Below, piece by piece: positions 3,404 through 62,552 of a DNA stretch of 64,000 bases; position 1 is the first letter of the stretch; each line of letters opens with the position of its first letter. The stretch is from an uncultured Candidatus Saccharibacteria bacterium. Its GTDB lineage: Bacteria > Patescibacteriota > Minisyncoccia > UBA6257 > Colwellbacteraceae. The stretch spans positions 10,075-74,074 of the forward strand of contig CAZLHU010000002.1 in NCBI GenBank assembly GCA_964559765.1, read 5' to 3'. A program made the position numbers and the translations under genes. Under the pieces are notes generated by a model that searched no databases, was not told where the DNA came from, and was given only the letters and a program-made list of their open reading frames with translations.

Positions 3404-3423
3404 AATCTGTTGCAATAATTATA

Positions 3424-4035: not shown

Positions 4036-4039
4036 ATTC

Positions 4040-5928: not shown

Positions 5929-5943
5929 ATGTACCTATTATAG

Positions 5944-5970
5944 CAACCAAAACCCCTTCCGAAGAAGGGG
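5944..5970 (-). terminator. Rho-independent terminator downstream of the 6096..6686 gene
   Basis: Stem ccccttc (5953-5959), loop cgaa, stem gaagggg (5964-5970). On the minus strand it is followed by a UUUUGGUU tract (5944-5952). Confidence 0.6.
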
Positions 5971-6095
5971 CTTTGGCCAAATAGTATTTAGGGACATGCC
6001 TCGATCGATATCGTCGCCGAGGACTGTTCTCCACTCACTCTGCAAAGAATATACCATAAAATTGGATAATAATCAAGACCCCCGTCCGATCAAAG

Positions 6096-6686
6096 CTACT
6101 TACTTGTCGTCGTGCTGGTTGGCGGGAGAGTTGAAGCTAAGCACGCGTTGACGGCGGCCATTGCCGTGTTCGACGGCACATAGTTGGGGTTGCCGTAGGC
6201 GCTGTCGAATTCGCTGCCCAATGCCGATTTCAAACAGCTTTGATTCTGCTGGGATTCTCCGTCGTAGACGGATTTGAAAGTCACGTTGATCACGGCCGCG
6301 CTTCCCGGAATAGGCACCAGAACTATCTGATTGGAGACAAGATTGCCATCGCAGGCATAGCCATACGTACCGGTGCCATATTCGAACTTAGCCGTAAGCT
6401 GGCTGCTGCCCTTTGCTGGCACGTTCAGGGATACGCCGCCGATATATATGGTATGGTCGACGCTGTCGCTGTTCTTGAAGGATATCAATCCCCCGTCAGG
6501 CAAAAGGACGTCCTGGGGCGAGATGGAGTTGCAATTGCTTATCGATACTATCGTCGCGGTGGCTGATGAATTGTTCTGTAAGTTAACCTTCCCAAAGAAG
6601 AACAAGGCCGCCACTATGATCACGACGACCACGATTGCGATCCACATGCCCAATTTTCTGCTTTTTGTAATCTGATTATTATCCAT
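6096..6686 (-). CDS. Hypothetical N-terminally membrane-anchored extracellular protein
   Basis: Single N-terminal TM helix (WIAIVVVVIIVAALFFF), then a Ser/Thr/Asn-rich domain; no recognisable family. Confidence 0.6.
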   Translation of the reverse strand: MDNNQITKSRKLGMWIAIVVVVIIVAALFFFGKVNLQNNSSATATIVSISNCNSISPQDVLLPDGGLISFKNSDSVDHTIYIGGVSLNVPAKGSSQLTAKFEYGTGTYGYACDGNLVSNQIVLVPIPGSAAVINVTFKSVYDGESQQNQSCLKSALGSEFDSAYGNPNYVPSNTAMAAVNACLASTLPPTSTTTSK

Positions 6687-8916: not shown

Positions 8917-10464
8917 TTAATCCAGGATCTTTACTCCGACCGACGGCGATAAGCTGGAATTGTTATTATTGCCGGTATTTGAAGATCCGCCAGAACACTG
9001 AATTATTTGGGGCGAACCCGTCAATAACGCGGGATTGGCGCCTGAAGCATTCAGGCCATACACATAGAGATTGTGGCTCTTTCCGTCCGAAATACCGGAA
9101 AGATTGGCGCTAAAACCATGATTACCGCTGATGCCGTAGGTTGAATCGATATTATTCGGGCTGGCTGAAGCCGCTGGGAAATTGCCTAAATAAACGCCAG
9201 ACCCCTGGGAAGTGCCGTCGCGATAGACCGACACCCCCGTACTCTGAGAGGGATTGCTCGGATCGTAAGTCCAACCCGAGACTGAACAGGAAGAATTGCT
9301 GGTATTGGTTCCCAGAACTTGGCCTACTGGAGGAGGCGCCGCTTTAGTGACGACTATAACGGTCTGATCCTGGGACGCCAAATTCCCCTGCTCGACGACC
9401 ACCTTAGCCGTATATACCCCTGGAGAATTGTATGTACAGGATTGATATTCGGCATCTGCGGTCTGGCCATCAAGTTTGCCATCATATGGACTAGTTATGT
9501 TTGTGCCTGCGTCGGGCCTATTGCAATAAAATGTGTAATTGGTCGTGTCCTGGGGTTGATTGCTATTTAATACCGCGGTCAGATTTGCGGTCGCTGAAGT
9601 GCCATTGGATGGTATAGTTAGACTATTATTGTCCGCTGTCAGTGACACCGATAAAGTTGGCGGCGGAGGCGGGGCAGATACGAGATTGACGGACACTTCG
9701 CTGAACTTATCCACGGTCTCCTTTAGAGAACCGCCCCAGATAGACGTCCATATGTCGGCAAGCATCTGCCCTAAATTCGCGGTTATTAGATCGTTGAATA
9801 TACTTCGCGTAGATGAAAGTTCGCAAACTACGCCGAAGTAGTAATGTCCGACAGATTTATTTATGTTGAAAGTCTCGCTTCCGGTGCCGGGGACAATACC
9901 TTCATTCCAAGACCCATAAGTGGAACAGACCGTATTTGACGGATCTTCGCTTATGATATTCCAGTCCAGTTTGAAGGACGGCGTTGTGGATTTATAGCTC
10001 AAACTCTGCTGGCAATTGGATGAGAATGACAAGAAATCATCGCTATTGCCGTCAGCACAAAGACTGACGCCCATACCTACGCTCAAATTAGTGGGGGCCA
10101 GGACCAGAAGTGCCGCGGTGGCTGCGCCGCCAGCAGCGCCAACACCCTCTTCAGCTATCGCATCCGTGCCAGCCTCTTCGCCAGCAGATTCGACTGCGCT
10201 TGCAGAACCCTGCTCAAATAAAACGCCGCTGCCGTCCGTTGCAACGCTGCCTATAGACTGGCCGGCATCAGACCCGGTGGTTATTATTATGTTTCCGGCC
10301 GAATCTACGCTAAGACCCTGACCCTGTAAAATAGGCGGCGTATACATTGGCGACCCAGCCGTGACCGTTACGGAAGCCAACGCCGGGACAGCCCCTATCG
10401 AATAGAACACATAAACCAATATGGTCAGGTAACTTATTAAGGTTAATCCGCGCTTCGTTGTCAT
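8917..10464 (-). CDS. Secreted/anchored PKD-like repeat protein
   Basis: N-terminal hydrophobic signal/anchor, PPPPP linker, PKD-like YTFYCNRPDAG..YNSPGVYTAKVVVEQGN. Confidence 0.55.
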   Translation of the reverse strand: MTTKRGLTLISYLTILVYVFYSIGAVPALASVTVTAGSPMYTPPILQGQGLSVDSAGNIIITTGSDAGQSIGSVATDGSGVLFEQGSASAVESAGEEAGTDAIAEEGVGAAGGAATAALLVLAPTNLSVGMGVSLCADGNSDDFLSFSSNCQQSLSYKSTTPSFKLDWNIISEDPSNTVCSTYGSWNEGIVPGTGSETFNINKSVGHYYFGVVCELSSTRSIFNDLITANLGQMLADIWTSIWGGSLKETVDKFSEVSVNLVSAPPPPPTLSVSLTADNNSLTIPSNGTSATANLTAVLNSNQPQDTTNYTFYCNRPDAGTNITSPYDGKLDGQTADAEYQSCTYNSPGVYTAKVVVEQGNLASQDQTVIVVTKAAPPPVGQVLGTNTSNSSCSVSGWTYDPSNPSQSTGVSVYRDGTSQGSGVYLGNFPAASASPNNIDSTYGISGNHGFSANLSGISDGKSHNLYVYGLNASGANPALLTGSPQIIQCSGGSSNTGNNNNSSLSPSVGVKILD

Positions 10465-43405: not shown

Positions 43406-44008
43406 TTAGTTATTTGTTTCGATATTAGTGAATACCACAAGCCGATTGGAATAGCTCTTCTGGGCAGCGTTCCAAGTGCCTTCGCATGTAATCAGGTTGA
43501 GATGGGCTTGCCCGTCATTTGAATAGAAAACATCTGAGGCGTCGCCGTTTTGGTCATATAACCTAGATCCGCTCACGACAAACGTGGTGGTCGCCCCTTG
43601 TTCGTCTATAACGTATACTTTGTCCCCTTTTTGCAATTTATATAAATCGTCGAACACCGCCCATATGCCGTCCTTCCACCCCTCATGCCCAGCGATGACG
43701 GCACTGCCATCTTCCCCTGGTCGCGGCCCTAGATCAAACCACACCGTGCTGGTTGGACCCACCGGCACGCCCATTGCCCCCTGTGGCGTAAGGCCAACAT
43801 CCCCTATGGGGGCATCGACGTTCATTTTCGGAATTTTGAGTCGAACCGGGAGTCCTAATATGTTCTGTTGCAAGCTTTGCGGGACCTGGCTAGCAACCGG
43901 AGACGCCTGCTCGGATGGGCCTTTAAGGAGCAAAATAGACGCCAAACAGACAACCCCAACAACGGCGACAGCAACCAGCAACCATTTTAACAAAGTCTTA
44001 AACCGCAT
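43406..44008 (-). CDS. Sortase-family transpeptidase (membrane-anchored)
   Basis: N-terminal TM helix, catalytic His (AGHEGW) and the LNLITCEG (TLxTC) cysteine motif. Confidence 0.8.
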   Translation of the reverse strand: MRFKTLLKWLLVAVAVVGVVCLASILLLKGPSEQASPVASQVPQSLQQNILGLPVRLKIPKMNVDAPIGDVGLTPQGAMGVPVGPTSTVWFDLGPRPGEDGSAVIAGHEGWKDGIWAVFDDLYKLQKGDKVYVIDEQGATTTFVVSGSRLYDQNGDASDVFYSNDGQAHLNLITCEGTWNAAQKSYSNRLVVFTNIETNN

Positions 44009-44955: not shown

Positions 44956-47154
44956 TTATTTTAATACCAACCTTCTGGTACCTTCTTTTTTCTTCATGCC
45001 TACAAGAGGGATTGTAACATAAAACGTCGATCCTTTATTTTCCGTCGATTCAAACCAGATTTTACCGCCCGTCTTTTCTATCGTTTCCTTGATAATATAC
45101 AATCCAAGTCCCGTGCCTTCAGGGTCCTTTACGCGTGCGTTGTCGGCCCTAAACATTTTAGTGAAGATCTTTGATTGCGCATCTTTGGGGATTCCATAAC
45201 CAGTATCAGCGACCGAAACAAGAATATTGGGTCCATCCTTTTTCATCGTTAGTGTGATACTCCCCTCTGGAGGGGTGTACTTTACCGCATTCGAAAACAA
45301 ATTCTGGAATATCATCCGGAGAATATTTAAATCAGCGTTAATTGGGGGAAGGTCTTTTTCGAGATTCTTATTTATAAGCAGTTTTTTATCATTAATATTC
45401 ACCTCGAGATCCTTGAGCGCCCCTTCTGCCACATTCTGAAGATTTACCTGTTCGGGTTCGACAACAAACACTCCCAAATCGACCCTAGAAACGTTGAGGA
45501 GTGCTGTAATTAAATTGATCATACGATCGTTGGAATTTTTTATTTCCGTCAGGTATTCACGCTGCTTGTCATTCAATGGCCCGGCATCTCCATCGATAAG
45601 CATGCCTGTGTATCCTTTGAGTGCTGTGAGAGGTGTGCGGAGTTGGTGTGAAGCGATAGAAACAAATTCATCTTTCGCCAGATCCAACGAACGCAATTCT
45701 TTGTTCGCTAATTCAACTTTTTCGGTTGTCGCAGCAAGTTGTTTCGCTTTAATATCGAGGTTTTTTGCAGTCACCAGTAACCTGCGCCGAACGCTTTCCC
45801 TTTCCTTGGCCGTTGTAGCAAGCTGCTTGGCCGTAACCACCAGCCTACTTCTCACGCTTTCCCTCTCCTTGGCAGTAGCAGCGAGTTGCTTGGCGGTAAC
45901 CTCTAATTTTTTTCGAACGCTTTCACGTTCTTTAGCCGTCGTAGCGAGCTTTTTGGCCGTGACCGCAAGCCTGTCTCTCACACTTTCTCTTTCCCTGGCA
46001 GTAACAGCAAGCTGCTTAGCTTTAAGTCGGAGCGTCTTTGCCGTCACTAACAATTTGCGCCTGACACTCTCCTTTTCCCTTGCAGTTGTGGCAAGATGCT
46101 TAGCGGTTATCACTAACTTATTTCTGACTTCTTCTCTTTCTTTGGCGGTTACGGCAAGTTTCCCTGCCGTCACAGCTAAGAGCTCCCTCGTTTTTTTTGT
46201 TTCGGTCACATCACGCGCAGCCGCGAACACGCCAAGCACATTACCTTTATTGTCTTTATAGACCGATGCATTATAGAGAACATCGATAAGCCTTCCATTT
46301 CTATGACGAATAGTAAGGGGGTAGTCAATAACCGATCCTGTTTTAAAAACTTGCTTATATCCCGCACGGGCTTTTTGGGGTTCGGTAAAATATTTTGAGA
46401 AATCAGTACCGATCAAATTCCCGCGCAACAAACCAGTTACCCGTCCCGTTGCCGCATTAACGTCAGTAATCTTTCCTTGCGGACTTATAACAACCAAGGG
46501 GTCGATGCCCGCCTCTATGAGACTGCGGGCGTACTGGTTTGTCAGTGCAATTTTCTCGGCAGTAGCGGCGAGCTGCTTGGCCCTAAGCCGAAGCGCCTCC
46601 GCTGTCACTGCCAGTTTACCCCTGATACTTTCACGTTCTTTAGCCGTCGTAGCGAGCTTTTTGGCCGTGACCGCAAGCCTGTCTCTCACACTTTCTCTTT
46701 CCCTGGCAGTAACAGCAAGCTGCTTAGCTTTAAGTCGGAGCGTCTTTGCCGTCACTAACAATTTGCGCCTGACACTCTCCTTTTCCCTAGCGACAGTAGC
46801 GAGTTGCTTAGCCTTAAGACGAAGATTTCTCGCCGTTACAAGCAGTTTGAGTCGAACATTTTCCCTTTCTTTTGCGGTCGTCGCAAGCTGTTTGGCTGTG
46901 ACCGCAAGTTGTTTGGCAACGACCTCTAATTTACGCCTGGCACTTTCCCTTTCACTAGCCGTCGTAGCGAGCTTTTTGGCCGTGACCGCAAGCCTGTCTC
47001 TGATGCTTTCCCTTTCTTCGGCAGTTATAGCGAGATGCTTAGCCGTCACTGCCAACTTACTCCTAACACCCTCCTTTTTCTTTGCCAAAACTTTAAGTTT
47101 AAGGATTGCGTTGTTGGCCCTGGAAGCAACTATTTTTTGTCCGTATTTTTTCAT
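44956..47154 (-). CDS. Cytoplasmic sensor histidine kinase: two ~8-9-unit arrays of a 22-aa coiled-coil repeat (LAVTAKKLATTAKERESVRxKL) flanking a PAS domain, then HisKA (ASHQLRTPL) and HATPase_c
   Basis: No TM helices. H-box IASHQLRTPLTAL; N, G1 and G2 boxes (NAVKYT, DTGYGIP, GTGLGL). Confidence 0.85.
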   Translation of the reverse strand: MKKYGQKIVASRANNAILKLKVLAKKKEGVRSKLAVTAKHLAITAEERESIRDRLAVTAKKLATTASERESARRKLEVVAKQLAVTAKQLATTAKERENVRLKLLVTARNLRLKAKQLATVAREKESVRRKLLVTAKTLRLKAKQLAVTARERESVRDRLAVTAKKLATTAKERESIRGKLAVTAEALRLRAKQLAATAEKIALTNQYARSLIEAGIDPLVVISPQGKITDVNAATGRVTGLLRGNLIGTDFSKYFTEPQKARAGYKQVFKTGSVIDYPLTIRHRNGRLIDVLYNASVYKDNKGNVLGVFAAARDVTETKKTRELLAVTAGKLAVTAKEREEVRNKLVITAKHLATTAREKESVRRKLLVTAKTLRLKAKQLAVTARERESVRDRLAVTAKKLATTAKERESVRKKLEVTAKQLAATAKERESVRSRLVVTAKQLATTAKERESVRRRLLVTAKNLDIKAKQLAATTEKVELANKELRSLDLAKDEFVSIASHQLRTPLTALKGYTGMLIDGDAGPLNDKQREYLTEIKNSNDRMINLITALLNVSRVDLGVFVVEPEQVNLQNVAEGALKDLEVNINDKKLLINKNLEKDLPPINADLNILRMIFQNLFSNAVKYTPPEGSITLTMKKDGPNILVSVADTGYGIPKDAQSKIFTKMFRADNARVKDPEGTGLGLYIIKETIEKTGGKIWFESTENKGSTFYVTIPLVGMKKKEGTRRLVLK
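45920..46080 (-). repeat. 161-bp perfect direct repeat, copy A (inside the histidine-kinase gene)
   Basis: Identical to 46628..46788. Offset 708 bp = 236 codons, in frame. Confidence 0.85.
46628..46788 (-). repeat. 161-bp perfect direct repeat, copy B (inside the histidine-kinase gene)
   Basis: Identical to 45920..46080. Confidence 0.85.
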
Positions 47155-47503: not shown

Positions 47504-49360
47504 CTAAATCTTGCGCTTTTTTATGACTACGACCGACGAAACTGACGCCAATACCAAAAGGCCGACCAATGCTATGACATTCCAGGGAGTTTCATTGCTC
47601 TGAGGAGGATATCCTGTATTCGGAAGCTTCGGAGCGGCTACGGCGACAGCTACTGTCGATGAGTGGGTAACCGTAAAGCCGTTGGCGCTGCCCTGGGCCG
47701 TAGCGGTGTTCGTGGTCGTCTGGCTCAAATTCATCTGGCAAGAGTAAGTCCACGTTTCGCTTGGATCAAGCAACCCGTTGCTGTTAGCGTCGCCAGTAGG
47801 ACTGCTTATTTGGGAGCACTTGTTATCGACAAGCGTTACGTTGCTAAGCGGCACGGTGCCTGGATTGGTCACCAGATAGGTGTACGTAACCGATCCCCCG
47901 CCAGCGGGCAGGAATAATGGCGCAGGCACTTTTACCAAATTGATCAATGGCGGCACAACCGAAGACCCGACGACGACCGTAGCATTGGCTGTATCAGAGG
48001 CGATCAATCCGTTTGCCTTTCCGGTCGCGGTGACTGTGTCACTGGTTGTCTTAGAGAGCGTGGCAGTGCAACTATAGCTCCATTTATCACCCACACCGAG
48101 CGTTGAATTGGGATTTATACTCCCGGAAATGGTGACGGGACTGCACTCATTGTCGGTTACCGTCACATTGGTCATGGGAACTATCCCAACATTCGATACT
48201 GTGTAATTGTATGTGACAGTCCCCGGTCCAGAGGGTAGAGCCAGAGGGCTGGGTATCTTCGTGACGTTTATCAGTGGCGGCACGGGCACTACCGCTAAAG
48301 CCACATCACTGTTGGTCAGATAGCAAACGTAATTATGACTGCTGCCGGCCGTAACGGTTATCTGACCATTGGCATTACAATCGCCGGAAAAAGTGGCCTT
48401 ATACTTAGAAATATTATTGGTCTCGGTAACTTTATAGGTACCCGAAGCCAAATATACTGTATTACCAGAGGTTACGGGCGTTCCGCTTACAAATAAGGGG
48501 AAATTGGCAGCAGTCGACGTTCCGCCATTATCGTTTATGACCTCCTTGAAAATAGTGACACTGTTTAGACTACTGCCCAGCGAAGATCCACCGGACGTGG
48601 TAACTGGAGCTGAACACGTCGGTACAATTATATGGTCCGTATCACCGGTCGTAATTGTCCCGTTAAGCAGCGATATTGCGCTTCCTGTCCACGTGGTGTT
48701 GTCGCCGACGGTAATGGCGTTATTATTGTCTATGTCCGTTCCGATGAACGTCGTATTGGCGGCAAGCGTCGTAGCCGCAGTCGCCGTCCAAAAGACATTG
48801 CAGGCTGATGCGCCATTAGACAATGTGATAACTGAGCCGGCATCCGAAGTTAGAGCGCCATCGGCTCTAAAGATATATGTCCCGCTGCCGTTCAGGGTTA
48901 CATTGCCTCCAACATCCATGGCTCCCGTACTGCAATACACTCCAGGAGTATAGACGCCTACGGTGCCGGGATGCGACGTGTCAGTGGCAAGGTCCACACT
49001 CCCACCTACCAGAGTGAAGGTGAACGTACATGGCTGACTAGCAATGCCGGTAGATACATTTGATAGGGCATTCGATGCGTCTGTAAGCGCCTGAGAATAA
49101 GGAGCTACTGAGCCGTAGTATGTATTCTGCGCACCCAACGAAGGTTTAACGCTCGGTCCAGTCGTGAATCCTACGTCCCCATTGATCGACGTGGCCGCCC
49201 AAGAGTTGCTATAGGTGCTGCCGGCTAGGACGCCATAGGTCGACGCCATTCCAAGAGATGGAGATGTTTGCGCGAATGCAGTAACCGGCCCAGTCAGGCC
49301 GAATATGAGAGATACGGCAAACGCCGTTGTTATTACTAATACGTTATTAAATCTTTTCAT
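47504..49360 (-). CDS. Cell-wall-anchored surface protein: signal peptide, ice-binding-like (DUF3494-type) domain, two DUF11 repeats, LPNTG sorting signal with hydrophobic helix and KKRKI tail
   Basis: N-terminus MKRFNNVLVITTAFAVSLIFG..AFAQ. DUF3494-like ASTYGVLAGSTYSNSWAATSINGDVGF. DUF11-like NVTVTDNECSPVTISG..WSYSC. C-terminus KLPNTGYPPQ..VIALVGLLVLASV..KKRKI. Confidence 0.8.
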   Translation of the reverse strand: MKRFNNVLVITTAFAVSLIFGLTGPVTAFAQTSPSLGMASTYGVLAGSTYSNSWAATSINGDVGFTTGPSVKPSLGAQNTYYGSVAPYSQALTDASNALSNVSTGIASQPCTFTFTLVGGSVDLATDTSHPGTVGVYTPGVYCSTGAMDVGGNVTLNGSGTYIFRADGALTSDAGSVITLSNGASACNVFWTATAATTLAANTTFIGTDIDNNNAITVGDNTTWTGSAISLLNGTITTGDTDHIIVPTCSAPVTTSGGSSLGSSLNSVTIFKEVINDNGGTSTAANFPLFVSGTPVTSGNTVYLASGTYKVTETNNISKYKATFSGDCNANGQITVTAGSSHNYVCYLTNSDVALAVVPVPPLINVTKIPSPLALPSGPGTVTYNYTVSNVGIVPMTNVTVTDNECSPVTISGSINPNSTLGVGDKWSYSCTATLSKTTSDTVTATGKANGLIASDTANATVVVGSSVVPPLINLVKVPAPLFLPAGGGSVTYTYLVTNPGTVPLSNVTLVDNKCSQISSPTGDANSNGLLDPSETWTYSCQMNLSQTTTNTATAQGSANGFTVTHSSTVAVAVAAPKLPNTGYPPQSNETPWNVIALVGLLVLASVSSVVVIKKRKI

Positions 49361-55393: not shown

Positions 55394-56521
55394 CTAGGCC
55401 GAGCCGATTATCGTTCCCCCGCCAAGCATCTCGCCTTCTTTGGAATAGAAGACTGCCGATTGTCCTAAGGCAACGAATTTCTGAGGATGATTGAATGCGA
55501 GCCTGGACGTTCCGTCAGATCCAGTCGTTAATGTGGCTTCAGACAGGCGCTGGCGATAGCGCACCCTGGCCATGACCGGCACGCCGCCTTTGTCCGACAT
55601 ATCGCTTTTGCGATTTATGACATTTACATCGGACAGATCAACCTCGTTACGGTAAAGGACGGGGTTGTCTTCGCCCTCAGCCACGACCAGAGTGTTCGTC
55701 CTGACATCCTTGTCGGACACATACACTGGCCTGGTATCTTTGGGGCCCGGCACGCCGATATGCGGATGCCTCAGGTTTACGCCGAGATGGCGTTGGCCGA
55801 TGGTATAGAACTGTGCGCCGTTATGCTCACCCACTTTTTCTCCTTTCACGTTCAATACATTCCCCTTTTCCTCTGGGATGTATTTGGATAGGAAATCGGC
55901 GATCGTGACCTTGCCGATGAAACAGATTCCCTGCGAGTCCTTCTTTGCAGCCGTAGGCAGCCCCGCCTCTTTGGCGATCGTCCTTACTTCCGGTTTGATA
56001 TAGTCCCCGAGGGGAAACAGGCAACGCTTCAACTGTCTTTGGGTAAGGGTCCATAGGAAATAGCTCTGGTCTTTATTCTTGTCTTTCGCCTCAAACAAGC
56101 TGAAGCCGTCTCCGGATTTGGCAATTTTCACATAATGACCGGTAGCGACATAGTCAGCCCCCATCTCCATTGCCCGGTCCATGAATAGGCCGAATTTTAT
56201 TTCCCTGTTACAGGCCACGTCAGGATTGGGGGTGATGCCGTTGCGATAGCCTTGGATCATGTATTCCACGACTTTCGCTTCATATTCCTTTTCCATGTCG
56301 AAGACATAGAAAGGAATGTCTAATTTATTGGCCACGCGGCGCGCGTCTTCGGCCTCGCGCACATCGCAGCCGTCCACGTTCCAGCAACGCAGATGTACGC
56401 CGACGACGTCATAGCCGTCCTTTTTGAGCAGGTATGCGGCGACAGAGGAATCAACTCCCCCTGACAGGCCCACGAAGACCAGCTTCTTCTTTGATCCTGA
56501 ATTGGTATTCTCCATATGCAT
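55394..56521 (-). CDS. mnmA: tRNA-specific 2-thiouridylase MnmA
   Basis: PP-loop SGGVDSS, catalytic Cys region CNREIKF, C-terminal barrel. Confidence 0.85.
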   Translation of the reverse strand: MHMENTNSGSKKKLVFVGLSGGVDSSVAAYLLKKDGYDVVGVHLRCWNVDGCDVREAEDARRVANKLDIPFYVFDMEKEYEAKVVEYMIQGYRNGITPNPDVACNREIKFGLFMDRAMEMGADYVATGHYVKIAKSGDGFSLFEAKDKNKDQSYFLWTLTQRQLKRCLFPLGDYIKPEVRTIAKEAGLPTAAKKDSQGICFIGKVTIADFLSKYIPEEKGNVLNVKGEKVGEHNGAQFYTIGQRHLGVNLRHPHIGVPGPKDTRPVYVSDKDVRTNTLVVAEGEDNPVLYRNEVDLSDVNVINRKSDMSDKGGVPVMARVRYRQRLSEATLTTGSDGTSRLAFNHPQKFVALGQSAVFYSKEGEMLGGGTIIGSA

Positions 56522-56591: not shown

Positions 56592-58127
56592 CTATTCCTC
56601 CGGATCCTCTTTTGATTCGGAGTCGGGATTTATGGGCGCCTCGTCCGGCTTAATATCACCATCCATAGATCCGTCTGCTTTATCGGAAGGACCGACGGAT
56701 TTGCTCAAAAGTTTTCGGAGCTCGTCCAGATCGGCGGCCTTGCGCACTTTGCGGTGCGGAGATTCCTCTTCCGCATTGGATTTGAGTATGTCGAGATGCT
56801 GCTCGGTGCGTCGCTCTGCCTTATCGCTCACATCGCTGCTTCCGGAATGCAGCTCCTCGTCGATCTTTTTGTCGACAGCCTCCTTCGGCGATCCGTAGCG
56901 CGTGCGGCTCATCTGTATTATGTCCTCGGACAGCGGGCTTTCCGGCAATGGCGGCGGGGGCAGGGTTTGCGCCGAGAATGGCTTGGAGGCCGTTCCATCT
57001 ATGAGAAGTTTTATATAAACGTGATATTTGCTCAGATTGACCAGGTCATTCTCGGTGAAGGTAGGCATGAATTCCCTCTCCAAGAATCTGGCGTCATCCG
57101 CTCCGACCCTGAATACGACCATCGTGCCGACGTTGCCGAAAACCGCGTCGCGAACTTTGCTGTTTTGTCCGGTGATCAGCTGTGCGATGTATTGATGGGC
57201 CAATACGAGATTCAGTCTGTATTTGCGGGCCTCGGAGAGTATGTTGGCGAATGATTCCGTAGAGAAGTTCTGGAACTCGTCGATGTATAAATAAAAGTCT
57301 TCTCTCTCGGCCTCAGGTATATCCACGCGGCTCATTGCTGCAAGCTGCATCTTAGTGACGAGCATCGCCCCAAGCAGTTCGGAATTATCCTCGCCCACCC
57401 TTCCCTTTGACAGGTTGGCGATGAATATCTTCTTCTCGTCCATAATCTTCCTTAGATCTATGGTCGAATGCGGCTGGCCGATGATCCTGCGGATTATGGG
57501 GTTGGACACGAACTGTCCGACTTTGTTCAATATTGCGGCTGTGGCTTCGGTCTCAAATCGCTGGGTATAGCGAGAGAACTCGTTGATCCAGAAGTTCTTC
57601 ACCACCGGGTCGGAAAGATGGCTCACCACCTCATTGCGATACGCCTTGTCGGTAAGTATGCGCATGACCCCGAGAAGAGTGGACCCGGGATATTCAAGCA
57701 GTGAAAGCAATGTGTTGTTGAGGATGTACTCCATCCTGGCAGACCAGGCATCGATCCAGATCTTCTTGAACACGCCCATCAAGCCGGAGGCCACAAGATG
57801 ATGGTACTCCTCCCCTACTCGCTCGAGCGGGTTAAACCCGACAGGATGTTCGACGTCAGCCGGATTGAAGTAGACCACGTCTTCCACGCGCTCCGGCGGA
57901 ACGAATTTGAGTATGCGCTCGGCGAATTCGCCGTGAGGATCGATTACGCCAACCCCGCGACCGGCTAGAATGTCGGCGACCACCATATTCTCCATCAGGG
58001 TCGTCTTGCCGCTCCCGGTTTTACCTATCACATAGACATGCTGTCTGCGGTCGATTTTCTTTATGCCGAAGACCACATTTTTATTATGTGCGGTCGTCTG
58101 GCCGATAACTGTTAAGTCCTTGTCCAT
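56592..58127 (-). CDS. TraG/TraD/VirD4 (TrwB)-family type-IV-coupling-protein-like P-loop ATPase, soluble (no TM), acidic C-terminal tail
   Basis: Walker A VIGKTGSGKTT followed by GVIDPHGE (TrwB: VIVDPNGD). Walker B LYIDEFQNF. NLVLAHQYIAQL motif. Tail PDSESKEDPEE. Confidence 0.65.
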   Translation of the reverse strand: MDKDLTVIGQTTAHNKNVVFGIKKIDRRQHVYVIGKTGSGKTTLMENMVVADILAGRGVGVIDPHGEFAERILKFVPPERVEDVVYFNPADVEHPVGFNPLERVGEEYHHLVASGLMGVFKKIWIDAWSARMEYILNNTLLSLLEYPGSTLLGVMRILTDKAYRNEVVSHLSDPVVKNFWINEFSRYTQRFETEATAAILNKVGQFVSNPIIRRIIGQPHSTIDLRKIMDEKKIFIANLSKGRVGEDNSELLGAMLVTKMQLAAMSRVDIPEAEREDFYLYIDEFQNFSTESFANILSEARKYRLNLVLAHQYIAQLITGQNSKVRDAVFGNVGTMVVFRVGADDARFLEREFMPTFTENDLVNLSKYHVYIKLLIDGTASKPFSAQTLPPPPLPESPLSEDIIQMSRTRYGSPKEAVDKKIDEELHSGSSDVSDKAERRTEQHLDILKSNAEEESPHRKVRKAADLDELRKLLSKSVGPSDKADGSMDGDIKPDEAPINPDSESKEDPEE

Positions 58128-58195
58128 ACTGATTTTTAATTATAAGCCAGGATTGCCTGTCATCTGATTTGATTATACCACCAGACGCGGATTAT

Positions 58196-59443
58196 CTATT
58201 CGGTCACTTCCGGCAAATTCGTAGGCGGAGCGCCCCGCTTCATTTCCAAACGGGTCAGCTTCTCGGCGCCGACCGTCGAATGCGGCGGATGGTACATAGT
58301 AGCCAGCTCCTCGGTGCAGATCATAAGCGGCTTTTTGGACAAGCTGCGCTTGCAGTAGTTTTGGAAAAGGCTCTTTTTTGATTCCAACTCCTTTTTTTCT
58401 TTGCCGAAGTTCTTCTCTATGAAGGTCATCTTAACGTCATCCAGTTTGAAGCTGTTCAGTTGAGGGCTGCCGAACTGGCGCAATGCCCCGACGACCGCTG
58501 ACATATTGCCCTTAACGAAAGAGCTGCGTCGGTCCAAATACAGAGCGCGGACTGTAGCCTCGAACACGAACTTGGCGCGCTTGTTCTCTATGGCCCGAAC
58601 TACGTCGTTCTCTCCGGGAGATATTGATTTGCCGGCAGGCTTATCATCCTTCTTGGGCGGTTTCGCGCCCGGATGTTCGAACAGCCCAGAAATCACGTCG
58701 ACGATCAAAAATTTTAATATGCCGAAAATGTGGTCGGATAGCTTCTTAGGCTTAACCTTGGCCTTGCGTCCCAAAAGCTCGTCCAGAACCCCTTGGGAGT
58801 CCTTTTCCCATTTCTTAACCTTGTCCTTATCCGCCAGCGGATGAATGACGATCTGCGTCCAGATCATCTCGTCATCCTTAAGCGTGGACATAGTCTCTAC
58901 GATCGTAGCGATGGGGTCTATATAATATTCGTCTTTCCTACTCTCGTCGAAAGAAGGATACGTGCGTAAGGGGTAAGCGCCGTCGCGGCTGAACACCAGT
59001 TCTGAACCGGCGATGTCATAGTTCTCGTCCGGCAGATCGGTGCCAAACCGGCCCACGTAATCCTCGGTCGGAGTAATTTCCGCACCAGGATACTGCGAGA
59101 ACACCGCTGATTCCAAAAGCTTGCGGAGATGGTCCGGCAAACGGATATAGAAATGCGTGCTCTCCGAAAAGCCGACTATTTCAAAAGACATCAGGTCCTC
59201 GCTGGGAATGGCATGCAAGGTGGCGAATACTTGTTCCATGGCCTGAGGCGATTTCAAATTGTCCGCTGGGATCTTGAGCTCCAATGTCGCCCAGTTAAGA
59301 CCGCTATCATGCTCCTCCTGCTTCTGCTTGGCCTTATATTTTTTAACCATATCGCGGATGGTAATAAAAAACGCGAATAGGATACCGATCCCAAACGCGA
59401 CAACAACCACCTGTTCAACTATATTTATGATTTGTTGTGGCAT
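58196..59443 (-). CDS. N-terminally anchored membrane protein of unknown function, operonic with the T4CP-like ATPase
   Basis: One TM helix (VVVVAFGIGILFAFFITI), Lys-rich linkers, no recognisable family. Its start abuts the upstream stop (59443/59444). Confidence 0.55.
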   Translation of the reverse strand: MPQQIINIVEQVVVVAFGIGILFAFFITIRDMVKKYKAKQKQEEHDSGLNWATLELKIPADNLKSPQAMEQVFATLHAIPSEDLMSFEIVGFSESTHFYIRLPDHLRKLLESAVFSQYPGAEITPTEDYVGRFGTDLPDENYDIAGSELVFSRDGAYPLRTYPSFDESRKDEYYIDPIATIVETMSTLKDDEMIWTQIVIHPLADKDKVKKWEKDSQGVLDELLGRKAKVKPKKLSDHIFGILKFLIVDVISGLFEHPGAKPPKKDDKPAGKSISPGENDVVRAIENKRAKFVFEATVRALYLDRRSSFVKGNMSAVVGALRQFGSPQLNSFKLDDVKMTFIEKNFGKEKKELESKKSLFQNYCKRSLSKKPLMICTEELATMYHPPHSTVGAEKLTRLEMKRGAPPTNLPEVTE

Positions 59444-60286
59444 CTAGCTCTTAGAAGACTCCTTCAAGCCGTACGTACCGCGACGCACTAACACGAACCT
59501 AGGATCCTTAATAAGTTCATTGTGGACCGTCTGGTGATGGACGTCCTTATCGCTAAGGGCATTGACCCTGGTGGCAACTTCTTTGAAGTGCAGCGGCTCC
59601 TTCGACTTCATCAAGACAAGATAGCTCTTGTCCCTGACCGTCTTGGGATTTATGTGTATCCATTTATCCGAGCCTAGGTCCCCATATGGCCCGATCTTGA
59701 AATGCTTCGAGATCGATAGATAGTTCAATATGACCGGTTCGGTAAGATTGTATTTGTTGGAAGTGGCGCTTAGGAATGAGTCGAAGTCGTTGCTGTTATT
59801 CGAAGCCAATGCTTCAGCGACTTTCCTAGCGATCTTGTATGCTTTTTCGTCACGGTGCCACACATCGTGTAGCTCGTCGTCGCCTTCGACAAACTCAGGC
59901 GAATCTATCATGTCGGCCAATAAGCGCAGGTTATTCGCGAAACGCTTCAACGACCCGGCATCGCCGAATAACGAATGCAGGTCTGCCGTAAGTAGGTCGT
60001 GTCGGCGTACATTTCCCACGTTCTGCAGATATCCGTCTATGAAGCCGATCAGGTACTCCAAATCACTGTCACCCTTTAAAGAGTCGATCAGCGACTTTAT
60101 CGCATTGGATTCGATCTGACGGACACGTTCCCTGGTCAGGTCATAAGATAAGCCCAACTCAGCGAGAGTCTTGGAACTGTTGCCAGAAAGACCATAACGG
60201 CCGGCCAATATTTTTGCTGAACGTCGATCTAGGCCCTCTAAGGCCTTATCAACCAATTTTTGGACATCTACCGACTTAGATTTCAT
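59444..60286 (-). CDS. Sigma-70 region-4-type HTH DNA-binding protein (not a complete sigma factor) with an unknown ~200-aa C-terminal domain
   Basis: LDRRSAKILAGRYGL..KTLAELGLSYDLTRERVRQIESNAIKSL matches the sigma70 region 4 pattern. Confidence 0.6.
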   Translation of the reverse strand: MKSKSVDVQKLVDKALEGLDRRSAKILAGRYGLSGNSSKTLAELGLSYDLTRERVRQIESNAIKSLIDSLKGDSDLEYLIGFIDGYLQNVGNVRRHDLLTADLHSLFGDAGSLKRFANNLRLLADMIDSPEFVEGDDELHDVWHRDEKAYKIARKVAEALASNNSNDFDSFLSATSNKYNLTEPVILNYLSISKHFKIGPYGDLGSDKWIHINPKTVRDKSYLVLMKSKEPLHFKEVATRVNALSDKDVHHQTVHNELIKDPRFVLVRRGTYGLKESSKS

Positions 60287-60292
60287 GTGAAT

Positions 60293-60321
60293 AAATTACA
60301 ATTTTCTAATGATATTGTCAA
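60293..60321 (-). promoter_or_regulatory. Candidate sigma70-type promoter for the 59444..60286 operon; predicts a leaderless transcript
   Basis: Minus strand: TTGACA (60321-60316), 17-bp spacer, TAATTT (60298-60293), 6 nt, then ATG (60286). Confidence 0.45.
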
Positions 60322-60366: not shown

Positions 60367-61272
60367 TTAGGCTTTCTTCTTATTCTTCCAATTATTCCAA
60401 GTGACAAGCAGAGGGCTTGCAATCAGAATTGAAGAATAGGCGCCTACCGTCGTACCGACAAGTATGGTCAGGACGAAATATTTCAAACTTAACGGCCCTA
60501 ATAAGTATATAGCAAGTAGGACTAAAATCAGAGTAAGGGACGTGCTGACCGAACGCCTGAAGGTCTCATTTATACTGCGGTTGACTATGCTTCCAAAGTC
60601 CTCTCTTCCACGGTATTTGACCAGGTTCTCTCTTACTCGATCGAAGACCACGATGGTGTCATGAACCGAGAATCCCATGACAACCAGAAGCGCAACTAAG
60701 AAGTTGGAATCCGCGGCTACGCCAAAGTATCTTCCCAGAATAGCGTATAGCCCGGCTGGTATGACCACGTCATGGAATAGAGTGATAAGGGTCAGAGCCC
60801 CGTATTTCCACGAACTGATAGGTTGCGAAACTTTTCGGAAGGCGAAGGATATGAACAGGGATATGAAAACCAACACAAGGATTATTGCCCATACGGCGTT
60901 CTGCTCCAACTGGCTGGAGATCGTAGGAGATACGCTGGAGAAAGAGACGTCCTGCACTCCGCTGCCGAACTTGTCCTGTATCTGGGTTAGATACTGTTGG
61001 CGGCTCGCCTCAGAGATGACGTTCATCGTTATCGAATAGGTGCTGCTCTGGGAATCCAAAGCGACGGTCTCAACGCTCTGATTTAACGTGGAAGTGAAGA
61101 AATCCTTTACCGTGGCGATGTTCGTGTTGGGGATCTGAACTTCCCATATGGAACCGCTCTTGAAATCTATTCCGAGGCGGAATCCAAACAGCGCTATCGC
61201 GGATATAGCTACGACAACCATTATGGTTGAGATCCAATAGAATACTTTTCTGTGTCCGACGTAATTGATCAT
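60367..61272 (-). CDS. secF: Protein-export membrane protein SecF
   Basis: Six-TM SecF topology, position after secD. Confidence 0.85.
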   Translation of the reverse strand: MINYVGHRKVFYWISTIMVVVAISAIALFGFRLGIDFKSGSIWEVQIPNTNIATVKDFFTSTLNQSVETVALDSQSSTYSITMNVISEASRQQYLTQIQDKFGSGVQDVSFSSVSPTISSQLEQNAVWAIILVLVFISLFISFAFRKVSQPISSWKYGALTLITLFHDVVIPAGLYAILGRYFGVAADSNFLVALLVVMGFSVHDTIVVFDRVRENLVKYRGREDFGSIVNRSINETFRRSVSTSLTLILVLLAIYLLGPLSLKYFVLTILVGTTVGAYSSILIASPLLVTWNNWKNKKKA

Positions 61273-61277
61273 TGTAA

Positions 61278-62552
61278 TTATTTTTCCATGAATACCTCCA
61301 ACATGGCCCTGGTCACGAATATGGCCGAGAACATGCTGATTATGACGCCGAGACCCAGGGTTAGGGCGAAACCTTTAACGAAACTTGAAGTTAAGAAATA
61401 GAGGATGGTCGCCGTAATGATGGTACTTATATTCGAGTCACGGATTGAAGGCCAAGCCCTCCGGAACCCCTCTTCAATGGCAACATGCCAGTTTGAGCCC
61501 TTCTTAACCTCTTCCTTGGAGCGTTCGAAGATAAGGATGTTTGCGTCGACGGCCATACCTATCGAGAGAATGACGCCGGCGATTCCAGCCAGAGTGAGGG
61601 TGAATCCTCCGGGTATCAGGAATTTGAACAGTCCTAATGACAAAGAAGTGTAGATGAGCAACGCGCATGATGCGAACAGCCCCAAAACGCCATACGAAAG
61701 AAGCATGAATAATATGACGGCTAGGGTGCCTATCCCCCCAGCCACCAATATCTGATGCAACGCATTGTCCGCCGCCGTGGCGCTTACGGTCTCTTCGCTT
61801 ACTAGTTTTATAGGAGCGGCCAGGGCGCCGGCGTTGAACCTTTCAGCAAGCTGCTGAGCGACGGTCGCGGTCACGCCCGATCCGCTGATTTGAGCCTGAC
61901 CACTGGTTATCGCCGAATTTATTATCGGGCAAGACATGTTTGTGTCGCCGGGGAAGATAAGATTGCCGTCGACGAGTATGCAAAGCGGCTTATTGATGTT
62001 GTTGCTGGTTATCTGGGAGAAGATCTGAGAACCCTGGTCGTTAAGGTTAAAAGTGAAAATCGGGTTGTTATTCTGATCAAAGCTCAGGGCAGCGTTCGTT
62101 ATATAACGACCGGTAAGCTGGGTTAGCGCCAGATTTTCCGTACTGCTGCCGGTGGTGCTGGTCGCAATCTGGACCAATCCGAACTGCAAGGTCGGAAGCT
62201 GTCCTATTTCATTTACCGCATCGGATAGGTTCTTGACCCCGGGCAGATCAACCAGCAATTGATAATTGTTGTTGTTCTGGGCCACGGTAACCTGGGCATC
62301 GGAAACGCCGTATAAGTCTATGCGTTTCGTAAGAACGTCCTGTAAGCCGTTCACCACGGAGCTGTAATCGGCCGGAGCGACAGAAGACAAATCTATGTCA
62401 TATACGAGTGACGTACCTCCGGCTAAGTCCAAACCATACCTCCAAGGGCTCACGCTTTTGCTCCACCTATTGGGATATATAAATACAGCCGAGACGATGG
62501 CTATAACAATGATGATTATTAGTACTATAAAATTGGATTTCCAAGTTTTCAT
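61278..62552 (-). CDS. secD: Protein-export membrane protein SecD
   Basis: N-terminal TM, large periplasmic-type domain, C-terminal six-TM bundle. Confidence 0.85.
   Translation of the reverse strand: MKTWKSNFIVLIIIIVIAIVSAVFIYPNRWSKSVSPWRYGLDLAGGTSLVYDIDLSSVAPADYSSVVNGLQDVLTKRIDLYGVSDAQVTVAQNNNNYQLLVDLPGVKNLSDAVNEIGQLPTLQFGLVQIATSTTGSSTENLALTQLTGRYITNAALSFDQNNNPIFTFNLNDQGSQIFSQITSNNINKPLCILVDGNLIFPGDTNMSCPIINSAITSGQAQISGSGVTATVAQQLAERFNAGALAAPIKLVSEETVSATAADNALHQILVAGGIGTLAVILFMLLSYGVLGLFASCALLIYTSLSLGLFKFLIPGGFTLTLAGIAGVILSIGMAVDANILIFERSKEEVKKGSNWHVAIEEGFRRAWPSIRDSNISTIITATILYFLTSSFVKGFALTLGLGVIISMFSAIFVTRAMLEVFMEK

Follow-up and report, generated by a model that had tools for sequence, protein, structure and literature searches.

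Coupling proteins of the VirD4/TrwB/TraD type (R388 TrwB, PDB 1E9R; DotL) combine an N-terminal transmembrane (TM) domain and a P-loop domain, with Walker A and Walker B motifs and a TraG-D_C region, in one polypeptide. The third gene of the operon described here encodes an ATPase that shares the P-loop domain, both motifs and TraG-D_C; however, it has no TM domain, and its anchor is a separate protein of a different, VirB4-like predicted fold, encoded by the neighboring gene. Gene 3 also differs from VirD4/TrwB in that no relaxase or T4SS genes lie alongside it, its context is housekeeping and its sequence is much more highly conserved. VirB4 (R388 TrwK, PDB 7O42/7O43/8RTB) resembles gene 2 in the modeled fold of its N-terminal domain, but no sequence similarity of TrwK to gene 2 or gene 3 was detected, and the ATPase is closer to VirD4. 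Further, the two halves are separate genes here, with no VirB3, VirB6 or VirB8 gene nearby or elsewhere in the window (the whole 64,000-nucleotide stretch of DNA that was analyzed).

A likeness can also be drawn to the Gram-positive plasmid pIP501, where TraJ, a soluble coupling-type ATPase, is presumably recruited to the membrane by the separately encoded membrane protein TraI. TraI is small and, to our knowledge, no VirB4-like domain has been reported in it; both proteins belong to a full conjugation operon. FtsK/SpoIIIE, with its winged-helix gamma domain, and EccC with EccE of the T7SS offer analogies only, not membership. In FtsK/SpoIIIE the motor and the gamma winged helix form one protein, whereas the presumed DNA reader of this operon is a separate multi-domain protein.

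Layout of the operon and its three proteins

The earlier note had placed three minus-strand genes here, and the ORF coordinates agree. The features are as follows.

61278-62552, minus strand: secD, kept upstream neighbor of the operon
60367-61272, minus strand: secF, kept upstream neighbor of the operon
60293..60321, minus strand: putative sigma-70-type operon promoter (TTGACA 60321-60316; -10-like element ~60298-60293)
59444..60286, minus strand: gene 1, 280 aa, four HTH-type domains
60080-60265, minus strand: gene 1 sigma-70 region 4 (aa 8-69; Pfam Sigma70_r4)
60110..60139, minus strand: gene 1 recognition helix LTRERVRQIE (aa 50-59), region 4.2-type by alignment
59852-60067, minus strand: gene 1 winged helix 2 (aa 74-145; structure model)
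59657-59848, minus strand: gene 1 winged helix 3 (aa 147-210; structure model)
59453-59641, minus strand: gene 1 HARE-HTH winged helix (aa 216-278), last domain
58196..59443, minus strand: gene 2, 415 aa, DUF8128 (PF26449)
59357-59431, minus strand: gene 2 N-terminal TM helix (aa 5-29)
58244-59296, minus strand: gene 2 VirB4-N-terminal-domain-like domain (aa ~50-400), predicted cytoplasmic
58211-58228, minus strand: gene 2 C-terminal motif PPTNLP (aa 406-411)
58128..58195, minus strand: spacer between genes 2 and 3, 68 nt, A/T-rich, with two TATAAT hexamers
56592..58127, minus strand: gene 3, 511 aa, soluble TrwB/VirD4-like ATPase, conserved core aa ~20-390
58002-58025, minus strand: gene 3 Walker A GKTGSGKT (aa 35-42), invariant in the alignment
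57276-57293, minus strand: gene 3 Walker B YLYIDE (aa 279-284), invariant in the alignment
56595-56969, minus strand: gene 3 tail (aa 387-511), AERRTEQHL (aa 437-445), DLDELRKLL (aa 466-474), then an acidic end
55394..56521, minus strand: mnmA, frequent downstream neighbor (its identical copy in related locus L001 matches Pfam tRNA_Me_trans)

Zero or near-zero spacing had been described. This is correct for genes 1 and 2, which abut (0 nt), but not for genes 2 and 3, which are 68 nt apart. The flanks are secD/secF upstream and mnmA downstream, as previously noted, and the GC content of the operon is similar to that of the remainder of the window. No VirB4, relaxase or pilin gene was seen among the window ORFs (ten other ORFs scanned against Pfam, the remaining ones read by eye), in keeping with the earlier note. 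At 60321, where that note ends its interval, the TTGACA box begins; the ATG of gene 1 lies 35 nt after the start of this box. The -10-like element is A/T-rich and preceded by TG; since it is weak, the promoter was missed by a consensus scan. As read from the sequence, the operon mRNA is possibly leaderless. In 38 of 48 related loci, a TTGAC(A) box lies no more than 120 nt ahead of the HTH gene; in five of them (L006, L007, L011, L014, L076) the distance is exactly 35 nt.

The region 4 HTH (Pfam Sigma70_r4, E 7e-11) had been regarded as the sole recognizable part of gene 1. This view has to be given up: the structure model predicts three more winged helices, the last of which is a HARE-HTH. Region 4 is 32-34% identical to that of SigA, and T51, R52, E53, R54, R56, Q57 and I58 of its recognition helix are invariant in the family alignment. 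We take LTRERVRQIE to be the counterpart of the helix that reads the -35 element in primary sigma factors; judged by this alignment, a -35-type recognition helix is intact. Gene 1 was considered as a sigma-70 family sigma factor and rejected, with Sigma70_r4 as its sole match. It has no region 2 or 3 and is therefore unable to act as a sigma factor; its NCBIfam sigma matches are confined to the final ~60-80 model positions, with scores far below cutoffs. The fold also matches the RNAP delta subunit, and TIGR04567 matches below cutoff (E 3e-4). However, delta begins with its HARE-HTH and ends in a long acidic tail, whereas the HARE-HTH of gene 1 is C-terminal, the protein stops there without an acidic tail, and two extra winged helices are present. 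Delta was rejected as well.

Gene 2 had been called a single-pass membrane protein without a family. The single N-terminal TM helix stands, but the protein does belong to a family, PF26449/DUF8128, according to the precomputed annotation on an identical protein; a profile of DUF8128 relatives retrieves 4386 cluster representatives. From the K/R-rich stretch that comes after the TM helix, most of the protein is predicted to be cytoplasmic. In the structure model this part is a VirB4-N-terminal-domain-like fold that was overlooked previously. The VirB4 likeness is structural only, with the aligned TrwK region inferred rather than read out, and hhalign detects no sequence similarity between gene 2 and TrwK (0.3% probability).

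For gene 3, the earlier assignment as a coupling-protein-like ATPase is borne out. Pfam matches are TrwB_AAD_bind (1.6e-12), T4SS-DNA_transf (7e-9), TraG-D_C (4e-7) and DUF87 (1.7e-8). By hhalign, TrwB is matched with 92.5% probability (E 5e-7, 260 columns) versus 1.9% for VirB4 (TrwK). The Pfam and hhalign alignments cover aa 26-343 and TrwB 118-391, including the span between Walker A and Walker B, where coupling proteins carry an inserted all-alpha domain. TrwB and DotL were the only significant sequence matches in a profile search of the PDB, which did not recover TrwK even at E <= 10, and VirB4-type models match over the P-loop only (AAA_10, E 0.026; P-loop_TraG, E 0.085). By sequence, gene 3 is thus close to TrwB/VirD4 and not to VirB4. 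FtsK/SpoIIIE was rejected (FtsK_SpoIIIE, E 0.0018, aa 14-51, P-loop only), as was HerA, which has a HAS-barrel and a NurA partner: the DUF87 match is weaker than those to the coupling-protein models, and gene 3 lacks both a barrel region at its N-terminus and a neighboring nuclease gene. As noted earlier, the ATPase has no TM segment of its own (best 19-mer hydropathy 1.29); it also has no N-terminal extension. The acidic tail is present (net charge -12 over 125 aa) but is not a family feature, the family median being 0, and its strong acidity is specific to the lineage of this genome. This lends no support to the proposal that the tail contacts the HTH protein in the manner of TraD and TraM.

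Conservation in Patescibacteria and fused relatives

The triad is kept as a unit across genomes of related, ultra-small Patescibacteria, and by sequence its ATPase falls with coupling proteins rather than outside that clade, so the earlier note stands on both counts. ATPase homologs number more than 8000, at 60-70% identity, across Patescibacteria classes. The 80 related loci include 79 ATPase ORFs with enough upstream sequence, and 53 of these have DUF8128 immediately next to them. About a quarter of ATPase orthologs have no adjacent DUF8128; these unlinked ATPases are nested subclades in the ATPase tree, where loci of the same candidate phylum (as named in sequence records) group together. 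In 44 of 52 linked loci, drawn from several classes, the HTH gene stands ahead of DUF8128. The median gap is 42 nt between the HTH gene and DUF8128 and 9 nt between DUF8128 and the ATPase (55 loci). Upstream, secF precedes 31 of 44 DUF8128-linked ATPases with enough upstream sequence, and secD/secF are directly upstream on the same strand in about 35 related loci; on the downstream side, 18 loci have an mnmA homolog. The HTH gene is missing from its position in Uhrbacteria-type loci, which retain secF-DUF8128-ATPase, and in Saccharibacteria the HTH gene still precedes the motor gene while secDF is not adjacent. No T4SS or relaxase genes were found by phmmer within ~7 kb in the 80 loci, nor a PrgI homolog in their flanks. 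The unit is inherited with secDF across Patescibacteria, in agreement with the earlier suggestion that this is no integrated element of the conventional kind.

One machine is divided between genes 2 and 3, each encoding one half. The family phrog_5156 spans both proteins in the same order, and comparison of profiles indicates that DUF8128 and the ATPase are fused in the Bacillus phages G and SPO1. By hhalign, phage G gp156 resembles DUF8128 in its N-terminal part (98% probability, E 7e-14), and an HMM built from DUF8128 relatives matches gp156 (1e-21) and SPO1 gp27.4 (4e-8). By sequence, an actinobacterial plasmid (Embleya) apparently carries the fusion too, its N-terminus matching DUF8128 weakly (30% probability). 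The phage and plasmid ATPases are 25-33% identical to gene 3. These relatives have the same two modules in the same order but are single polypeptides, and the phage G fusion lacks the N-terminal TM helix of gene 2. Unlike the operon, they have no sigma4/HARE gene, and a relaxase-like gene of the MOBC type, a VirB4-like ATPase or both accompany them. In phage G the VirB4-like protein is gp155. In SPO1 the fusion is closely followed by gp27.3, a Replic_Relax protein (MOBC relaxase class). The Embleya plasmid NZ_CP108778 has a row of PrgI, a VirB4-like ATPase, the 812-aa coupling-type protein, a MOBC relaxase and NlpC/P60. We therefore class the gene 2/gene 3 pair as a split coupling-protein variant.

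Apparent counterparts were also recognized in Southlakia epibionticum. SEML1_0294 (349 aa; Sigma70_r4, HARE-HTH and winged helix) is directly upstream of SEML1_0293 on the same strand, and both are flagged as core, Patescibacteria-enriched families (Wang et al. 2023, Tables S1 and S2). SEML1_0293 is a 921-aa TrwB_AAD_bind/TraG-D_C protein whose ATPase domains start near aa 400 (Wang et al. 2023). From these domain tables, it is apparently a DUF8128-type N-domain fused to the ATPase. SEML1_0294 has one extra winged helix relative to gene 1, and secDF is not adjacent, unlike here. The adjacency, the short median gap, the phage fusions and this apparent fusion make it very probable that the anchored neighbor is the membrane attachment of the ATPase, as the earlier note had supposed. 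In published Tn-seq data, the apparent HTH counterpart is essential and SEML1_0293 is non-essential at all three time points. The HTH protein is therefore not merely a motor adaptor. A second Southlakia paralog, SEML1_0142, could mask the phenotype of SEML1_0293.

Explanations of the operon and its possible roles

Based upon these observations, we favor, at roughly even confidence, the reading that the operon is a domesticated, membrane-tethered nucleic-acid motor, Patescibacteria-wide and vertically inherited, that derives from a monoderm-type conjugation coupling protein. DUF8128 would tether the ATPase to the inner membrane face, perhaps via the G(A/P)PPxNLP peptide that is conserved at its C-terminus. 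At the membrane, the ATPase would form a ring and translocate nucleic acid with ATP in the style of a coupling protein. Gene 1 would bind DNA and/or RNA polymerase. It would be essential in its own right and might tag nucleic acid or bring it to the motor. The machine would work apart from the T4SS gene cluster, in line with a published survey in which only 148 of 5713 coupling-protein homologs lie near virB4.

Alternatively, the gene 2/gene 3 pair might supply the coupling protein that is missing from the Patescibacteria T4SS encoded elsewhere in the genome, recruiting protein or nucleic-acid substrates, with its VirB4-like N-domain docking it onto the VirB3/VirB4/VirB8 inner-membrane complex. 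We consider this possible but rather unlikely. It would account for a T4SS cluster that has no recognizable coupling protein, and coupling-protein genes are often far from virB4. The TrwB-like ATPase, the fused relatives in conjugation-type clusters and the modeled VirB4-like domain, which would be a natural docking surface, also point this way. However, the T4SS of Southlakia is essential and SEML1_0293 is not, the context is housekeeping in every lineage examined, and the ATPase is conserved far beyond usual T4SS parts. Coupling-protein homologs also occur in more genomes than VirB4 (2918 versus 2417 of 3035 in a published survey), counts that are blurred by incomplete MAGs.

It is unlikely, in our view, that the three genes do not form one system, with gene 1 as a general essential RNAP-associated or transcription factor and the pair acting elsewhere, possibly in protein export with SecDF. 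Gene 1 would then be a sigma region 4 mimic with a delta-like HARE-HTH, linked to the pair by a shared promoter or old synteny only. The essential/dispensable split in Southlakia fits, as do the identity to SigA region 4, the delta fold match, the invariant recognition helix, the Uhrbacteria-type loci, the looser HTH-to-DUF8128 gaps and the frequent secDF adjacency. Yet the HTH gene keeps its place before DUF8128 in most linked loci, and in Saccharibacteria without adjacent secDF too, which exceeds expected drift; genes 1 and 2 abut in the window, and the putative operon promoter is separate from secDF. Nor are we aware of any coupling-type ATPase that works with SecDF. It is very improbable that the operon is left over from an integrated element, conjugative or mobilisable, or that it is an anti-phage defense module. 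Family relatives do occur on plasmids and phages, and PADLOC reports mad8 (E 1e-15) and weak HerA/DndH matches for the ATPase and, in region 4 of gene 1, MzaA (2e-8), but these span generic ATPase or region 4 segments only. Moreover, the GC content is not deviant, a search of the surroundings (window; 80 loci) found neither an integrase nor a relaxase or T4SS gene, the gene order beside secDF is constant across classes, the ATPase tree groups loci of the same phylum, and the Southlakia genes were published as a core family.

For the favored membrane-tethered motor, candidate roles would include membrane-proximal handling of chromosomal or incoming DNA. The translocation module put forward in the earlier note is a plausible function too. 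The operon encodes no channel protein, and these genes alone therefore cannot explain transport across the membrane. Since the HTH counterpart is essential and the ATPase is not, a simple adaptor-motor relationship is argued against, and the adjacency of the two genes could reflect co-regulation only.

Patescibacteria are unable to make their own nucleotides. With this in mind, the module might be the ATP-driven motor of nucleic-acid import in this group, a bold proposal to which we assign a small chance. The coupling-type ring at the membrane would pull incoming DNA or host RNA inward, and on the cytoplasmic side the nucleic acid would be taken over by the sigma4/winged-helix protein. For DNA, ComEC might be the point of entry, since the com genes reported to be conserved in the group do not include ComFA. 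The motor family is near-universal in the phylum, and cells in rich co-culture can do without the motor, just as they can without ComEC; both are compatible with import, as is a 2026 preprint on host-RNA import with no known mechanism.

Layout and conservation of the three-gene unit

Our analysis has shown that the three minus-strand ORFs of the earlier note lie exactly where it had placed them:

59444-60286, minus strand: gene 1, HTH protein, ORF of 280 aa
58196-59443, minus strand: gene 2, DUF8128 membrane protein, ORF of 415 aa
56592-58127, minus strand: gene 3, ATPase, ORF of 511 aa

The near-zero spacing described there is true for one junction only, since genes 1 and 2 have no spacer but genes 2 and 3 are 68 nt apart. 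The neighbourhood is housekeeping, as had been recognized: secD and secF form the upstream flank of gene 1, and mnmA, a CobA/CobO/BtuR-type corrinoid adenosyltransferase gene, aspS and ndk are found downstream of gene 3. The GC content of the operon is the same as that of the remainder of the window. A VirB4, relaxase or pilin gene was not seen among the window's ORFs (ten other ORFs scanned with Pfam, others inspected by eye), in agreement with the first reading of the sequence.

The end coordinate of the earlier note, 60321, corresponds to the first T of a TTGACA box, 35 nt before the ATG. TTGAC(A) was present upstream of the HTH gene in 38/48 loci, commonly with a TG-type extended -10 behind it, and based on this promoter-like box the three genes appear to be their own transcription unit. 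A -35-like TTGAC(A) is located exactly 35 nt before the HTH start codon in the window (60286-60321, minus strand) and in five related loci (L006, L007, L011, L014 and L076). Transcription from such a box would start at or next to the ATG, and the mRNA would be leaderless. Autoregulation via the TTGACA box was considered and rejected; the box is common before the HTH gene but indistinguishable from an ordinary promoter.

The comparison of gene neighbourhoods proposed in the earlier note was performed on 80 loci obtained from a scan, with one genome per species (Doudna-, Wildermuth-, Nealson-, Niyogi-, Kerfeld-, Uhr-, Falkow-, Buchanan-, Morani-, Wolfe-, Nomura- and Yonathbacteria, among others), and it revealed a conserved unit. 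DUF8128 was directly upstream of the ATPase on the same strand for 53 of the 79 ATPase ORFs with enough upstream sequence (53/71 without a divergent paralog clade), the HTH gene was directly upstream of DUF8128 in 44/52, and secF, with secD, was upstream of the unit in 31/44. The DUF8128 and ATPase genes were separated by a median of 9 nt, and the HTH and DUF8128 genes by a median of 42 nt. In a neighbour-joining tree of the ATPase, unlinked ATPases formed nested subclades, and loci with a shared candidate phylum in their record titles clustered together (e.g. Wildermuthbacteria L014 and L022). This pattern is consistent with vertical inheritance, the ancestral order being secD-secF-HTH-DUF8128-ATPase. 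A search of the 80 loci for VirB4-like, PrgI, MOBC and NlpC/P60 homologs found none within approximately 7 kb. Vertical, phylum-wide conservation of the unit away from T4SS genes is well supported and, with no T4SS or relaxase homolog nearby, upholds the view that this is not a conventional integrated conjugative element.

Some loci depart from this arrangement. In Uhrbacteria-type loci (L032, L063, L069, L073, L075, L077 and L083), secF abuts DUF8128 directly, and the HTH gene is absent there and across each fetched locus. The ATPase of L050 (3518-9917) lies behind nrdD, nrdG and a gene for a 96-aa TM protein and has no DUF8128 neighbour; a treble-clef zinc finger has been added at its C-terminus, and an RNase T-like exonuclease gene follows it. 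In L042 (4986-13207), dnaK and dnaJ enclose the ATPase gene along with those of a 585-aa unknown protein and of a second, divergent ATPase paralog. A search for T4SS clusters near unlinked ATPase copies yielded housekeeping neighbours instead (nrdD/nrdG, the RNase T-like exonuclease and dnaK/dnaJ), and a hidden DUF8128 was rejected because the 585-aa (L042) and 96-aa (L050) neighbours are unrelated to it.

Ancestry of the ATPase and its membrane partner

The TrwB/TraD/VirD4 hallmarks reported for gene 3 were borne out by the proposed Pfam search, in which coupling-protein models scored best (TrwB_AAD_bind, 1.6e-12, aa 26-343; T4SS-DNA_transf, 7e-9; TraG-D_C, 4e-7). The DUF87/HerA match was weaker, and FtsK and VirB4-type models reached the P-loop only. 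When the ATPase family profile was run against all PDB sequences, TrwB (2.5e-5) and DotL (3.7e-4) were the only matches. Using R388 proteins from NC_028464, hhalign paired gene 3 with the coupling protein TrwB (92.5% probability, 260 columns) and gave 1.9% for TrwK, the R388 VirB4. More than 8000 ATPase homologs were scored, with 60-70% identity between named candidate phyla, and about 180 positions were invariant in an alignment of 11 diverse members. Judged from these comparisons, conservation of the ATPase is unusually high. Close homologs of the unit's proteins were all in Patescibacteria/Candidate Phyla Radiation assemblies.

The acidic C-terminal tail is present in the window protein (net -12) but is not a family trait. 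The median net tail charge of 112 homologs is 0, and only 25% carry -4 or lower over the last 30 residues; the strong acidity is thus lineage-specific. A tail motif, (V/I/L)(D/N)xx(D/E/A)L(R/K)xx(L/I), was found in 66/120 homologs, and AERRxEQxL is in the consensus of the 11-member alignment.

Gene 2 had been described as a single-pass membrane protein with no family match. The first part stands, as there is one N-terminal TM helix (aa 5-29), and the K/R-rich stretch behind it puts most of the protein in the cytoplasm. The second part does not; the local Pfam version gave no match, and precomputed annotation assigns the protein to PF26449 (DUF8128), whose profile found 4386 cluster representatives among 1.84 billion proteins. 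The AlphaFold model is confident (pLDDT 87, pTM 0.81), and a Foldseek search with it placed 13 TrwK chains at the top (E 3e-6 to 1e-3). Because DUF8128 lacks a P-loop and the matches included no further RecA-like ATPase, we infer that the TrwK region matched must be the VirB4 N-terminal domain. A link at the sequence level was rejected (DUF8128 family profile against TrwK by hhalign, 0.3%), and based on the model the relation seems visible at the fold level only. The C-terminal end of DUF8128 carries a conserved G(A/P)PPxNLP (window 58211-58228, minus strand; also in the homologs P0344, P0402 and P0435), and in longer members a low-complexity linker of variable length, at most approximately 250 aa, lies between this motif and the folded domain. 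The motif resembles a short docking peptide.

Relatives in phages and on a plasmid indicate that genes 2 and 3 belong to one machine. The profile of PHROG family 5156 (824 positions, function unknown) matched gene 2 at 73-366 and gene 3 at 387-804. Searching with the ATPase by tblastn returned 51 phage records, almost all from large Bacillus phages; tblastn with DUF8128 returned no phage record, and its phage link comes from the PHROG profile and HMM searches. The ATPase occupies the C-terminal half of phage G gp156 (825 aa) and SPO1 gp27.4 (906 aa), and the N-terminal halves match DUF8128 (gp156: hhalign 98%, E 7e-14, HMM E 1e-21; gp27.4: HMM E 4e-8). Upstream of gp156 is gp155, which is VirB4-like (P-loop_TraG, AAA_10; L084, the phage G locus, 1196-5338). 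Overlapping and downstream of gp27.4 is gp27.3, which matches Replic_Relax (PF13814), the MOBC relaxase class (L085, the SPO1 locus, 2747-6284). In the records, gp27.4 and gp27.3 have no product name, gp156 is labelled 'ATP-binding/permease; MsbA-like' and gp155 'VirB-like'. From these matches, large Bacillus phages are predicted to carry a conjugation-like gene pair that includes a fused DUF8128-coupling-type ATPase. An Embleya plasmid has a row of PrgI/VirB3, VirB4-like ATPase, 812-aa coupling-type protein, MOBC relaxase and NlpC/P60 genes, and the N-terminus of the 812-aa protein resembles DUF8128 weakly (30%, E 5e-4).

Taken together, the fusions and their VirB4- and relaxase-like neighbours suggest that the Patescibacteria pair is a split, relaxase-less coupling-protein subtype in which a VirB4-like N-domain stands in place of the usual transmembrane domain. 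In contrast to the phage relatives, which join DUF8128 and ATPase in one polypeptide, the Patescibacteria pair is encoded by two genes. The earlier proposal of a membrane anchor supplied in trans agrees with these observations: hydropathy indicates no hydrophobic segment in gene 3, as had been claimed, and the single-TM DUF8128 adjoins it and is fused to it in phages. There is good support for the identification of the three parts, for an ATPase machine encoded by two genes and for the ancestry of the pair among conjugation-type coupling proteins.

Other genes in the window

Several other genes were observed. A stop-free frame of at least 1139 aa with a signal-peptide-like N-terminus runs off the left end (2-3418, minus strand; GC 0.54-0.56, above the rest of the window) and probably encodes a giant secreted or surface protein. 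Two proteins of approximately 515 aa (6739-8283 and 8917-10464, both minus strand), predicted to be secreted or membrane-anchored and without a Pfam match, have smaller ORFs of a similar kind beside them; they may be surface proteins specific to this lineage. A 618-aa surface protein (47504-49360, minus strand) has an ice-binding-like domain, two DUF7507 repeats and a C-terminal LPNTG sorting signal, and a sortase-like gene (43406-44008, minus strand; LITC motif, by eye) lies approximately 3.5 kb away. Translation of 44956-47154 (minus strand) gives, by eye, a histidine-kinase-like protein of 732 aa; its N-terminal two thirds contain many repeats of approximately 22 aa (LAVTAKxLATTAKERESVRxKL) with a PAS-like segment between them.

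The HTH protein and possible roles of the unit

Gene 1 does contain a sigma70 region-4 HTH, but this is not its only recognisable part, as the very confident model (pLDDT 93) has four small helical domains. The recognition helix LTRERVRQIE, a motif with which sigma-70 reads the -35 hexamer, is invariant in the family alignment. Sigma region 2 is absent, which excludes the protein from the sigma factors. Scores were obtained for more than 5500 homologs, and the best 120 listed were almost all 262-300 aa and from the same phylum. A diverged MOBC relaxase was rejected (hhalign against SPO1 gp27.3, only 0.4%). Our literature search found no paper mentioning DUF8128 or a sigma4/HARE protein in CPR.

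Published Tn-seq in Southlakia epibionticum bears on the role of this protein. SEML1_0294 (349 aa; Sigma70_r4, HARE-HTH and winged domains; Wang et al. 2023, PMC10633639, Tables S1 and S2) was essential at three of three time points, with 24 insertions in the input and 1, 1 and 2 after selection. Directly downstream, SEML1_0293 (921 aa) was non-essential at all three (87-120 insertions), its normalised reads fell from 5817 to 2940 to 1372 while those of the neighbour SEML1_0292 were flat, and its TrwB_AAD_bind match at aa 402-719 suggests a fused N-domain (PMC10633639). Both genes are flagged there as core, Patescibacteria-enriched families. From the published domain tables, we regard them as apparent counterparts of gene 1 and the ATPase pair. 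The essential job of the HTH protein would then need no ATPase, making it more than a relaxosome-like adaptor, and its similarity to sigma region 4 and delta makes a transcription- or chromosome-linked role likely. With strong tail acidity also lineage-specific, the earlier idea that the acidic tail contacts the HTH protein is disfavoured. Nevertheless, conserved adjacency argues for a functional or regulatory tie of the HTH gene to the pair. We predict that DUF8128 would anchor an ATPase ring beneath the membrane, that the ring would move nucleic acid and that the HTH protein would be functionally tied to this machine.

The main alternative is that the gene 2/3 pair serves as a distal coupling protein of the Patescibacteria T4SS, which in Southlakia is essential and has no recognisable coupling protein (PMC10633639). 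This agrees with the ancestry of the family, and a second Southlakia paralog (SEML1_0142) and the incompleteness of MAGs make it harder to dismiss; however, the ATPase is dispensable in Southlakia, and its family is extremely conserved and more widely distributed than VirB4, so we consider it rather unlikely. Of 3035 Patescibacteria genomes, 2918 have VirD4-type homologs (5713 in total, only 148 near virB4) and 2417 have VirB4 (Quinonero-Coronel et al. 2025, PMC12102498); that study leaves the role of the orphan homologs open and says of an exaptation of the coupling-protein gene that it 'cannot be ruled out'. A motor for nucleic-acid import is a still more doubtful reading. It touches on ComFA, unmentioned beside the conserved ComEC, DprA and ComFC (PMC10633639), and on a 2026 preprint describing host-RNA import by a Patescibacterium with its mechanism unresolved. 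An origin in a mobile element or defence system is very unlikely; PADLOC partial matches (mad8, HerA, DndH, MzaA) were judged generic, and nothing useful was found in the MADS literature. Simple replacement of FtsK by the ATPase is unsupported, given the annotated ftsK of Saccharibacterium TM7x.

The orphan coupling-protein homolog was already known. Its VirB4-like split partner and the fused phage and plasmid relatives seem to be undescribed so far, as does the conserved association with secDF and with a sigma-fragment protein that is apparently essential. Patescibacteria, most of them uncultured, account for a large share of bacterial diversity and have tiny genomes; any gene kept by nearly all of them is therefore likely to matter. 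To the published orphan, our study adds a dedicated partner with a VirB4-like fold that would supply the membrane anchor; a pair that is the split form of a protein fused beside VirB4-like or relaxase-like genes in phages and a plasmid; its association with a DNA-binding protein built on a sigma fragment, the apparent counterpart of which is essential in the only species tested; and secDF inherited beside the whole unit. The architecture of the pair blurs the distinction between VirB4 and VirD4. These four points lead to a specific hypothesis about a conserved 'dark matter' machine, and Southlakia is genetically tractable.
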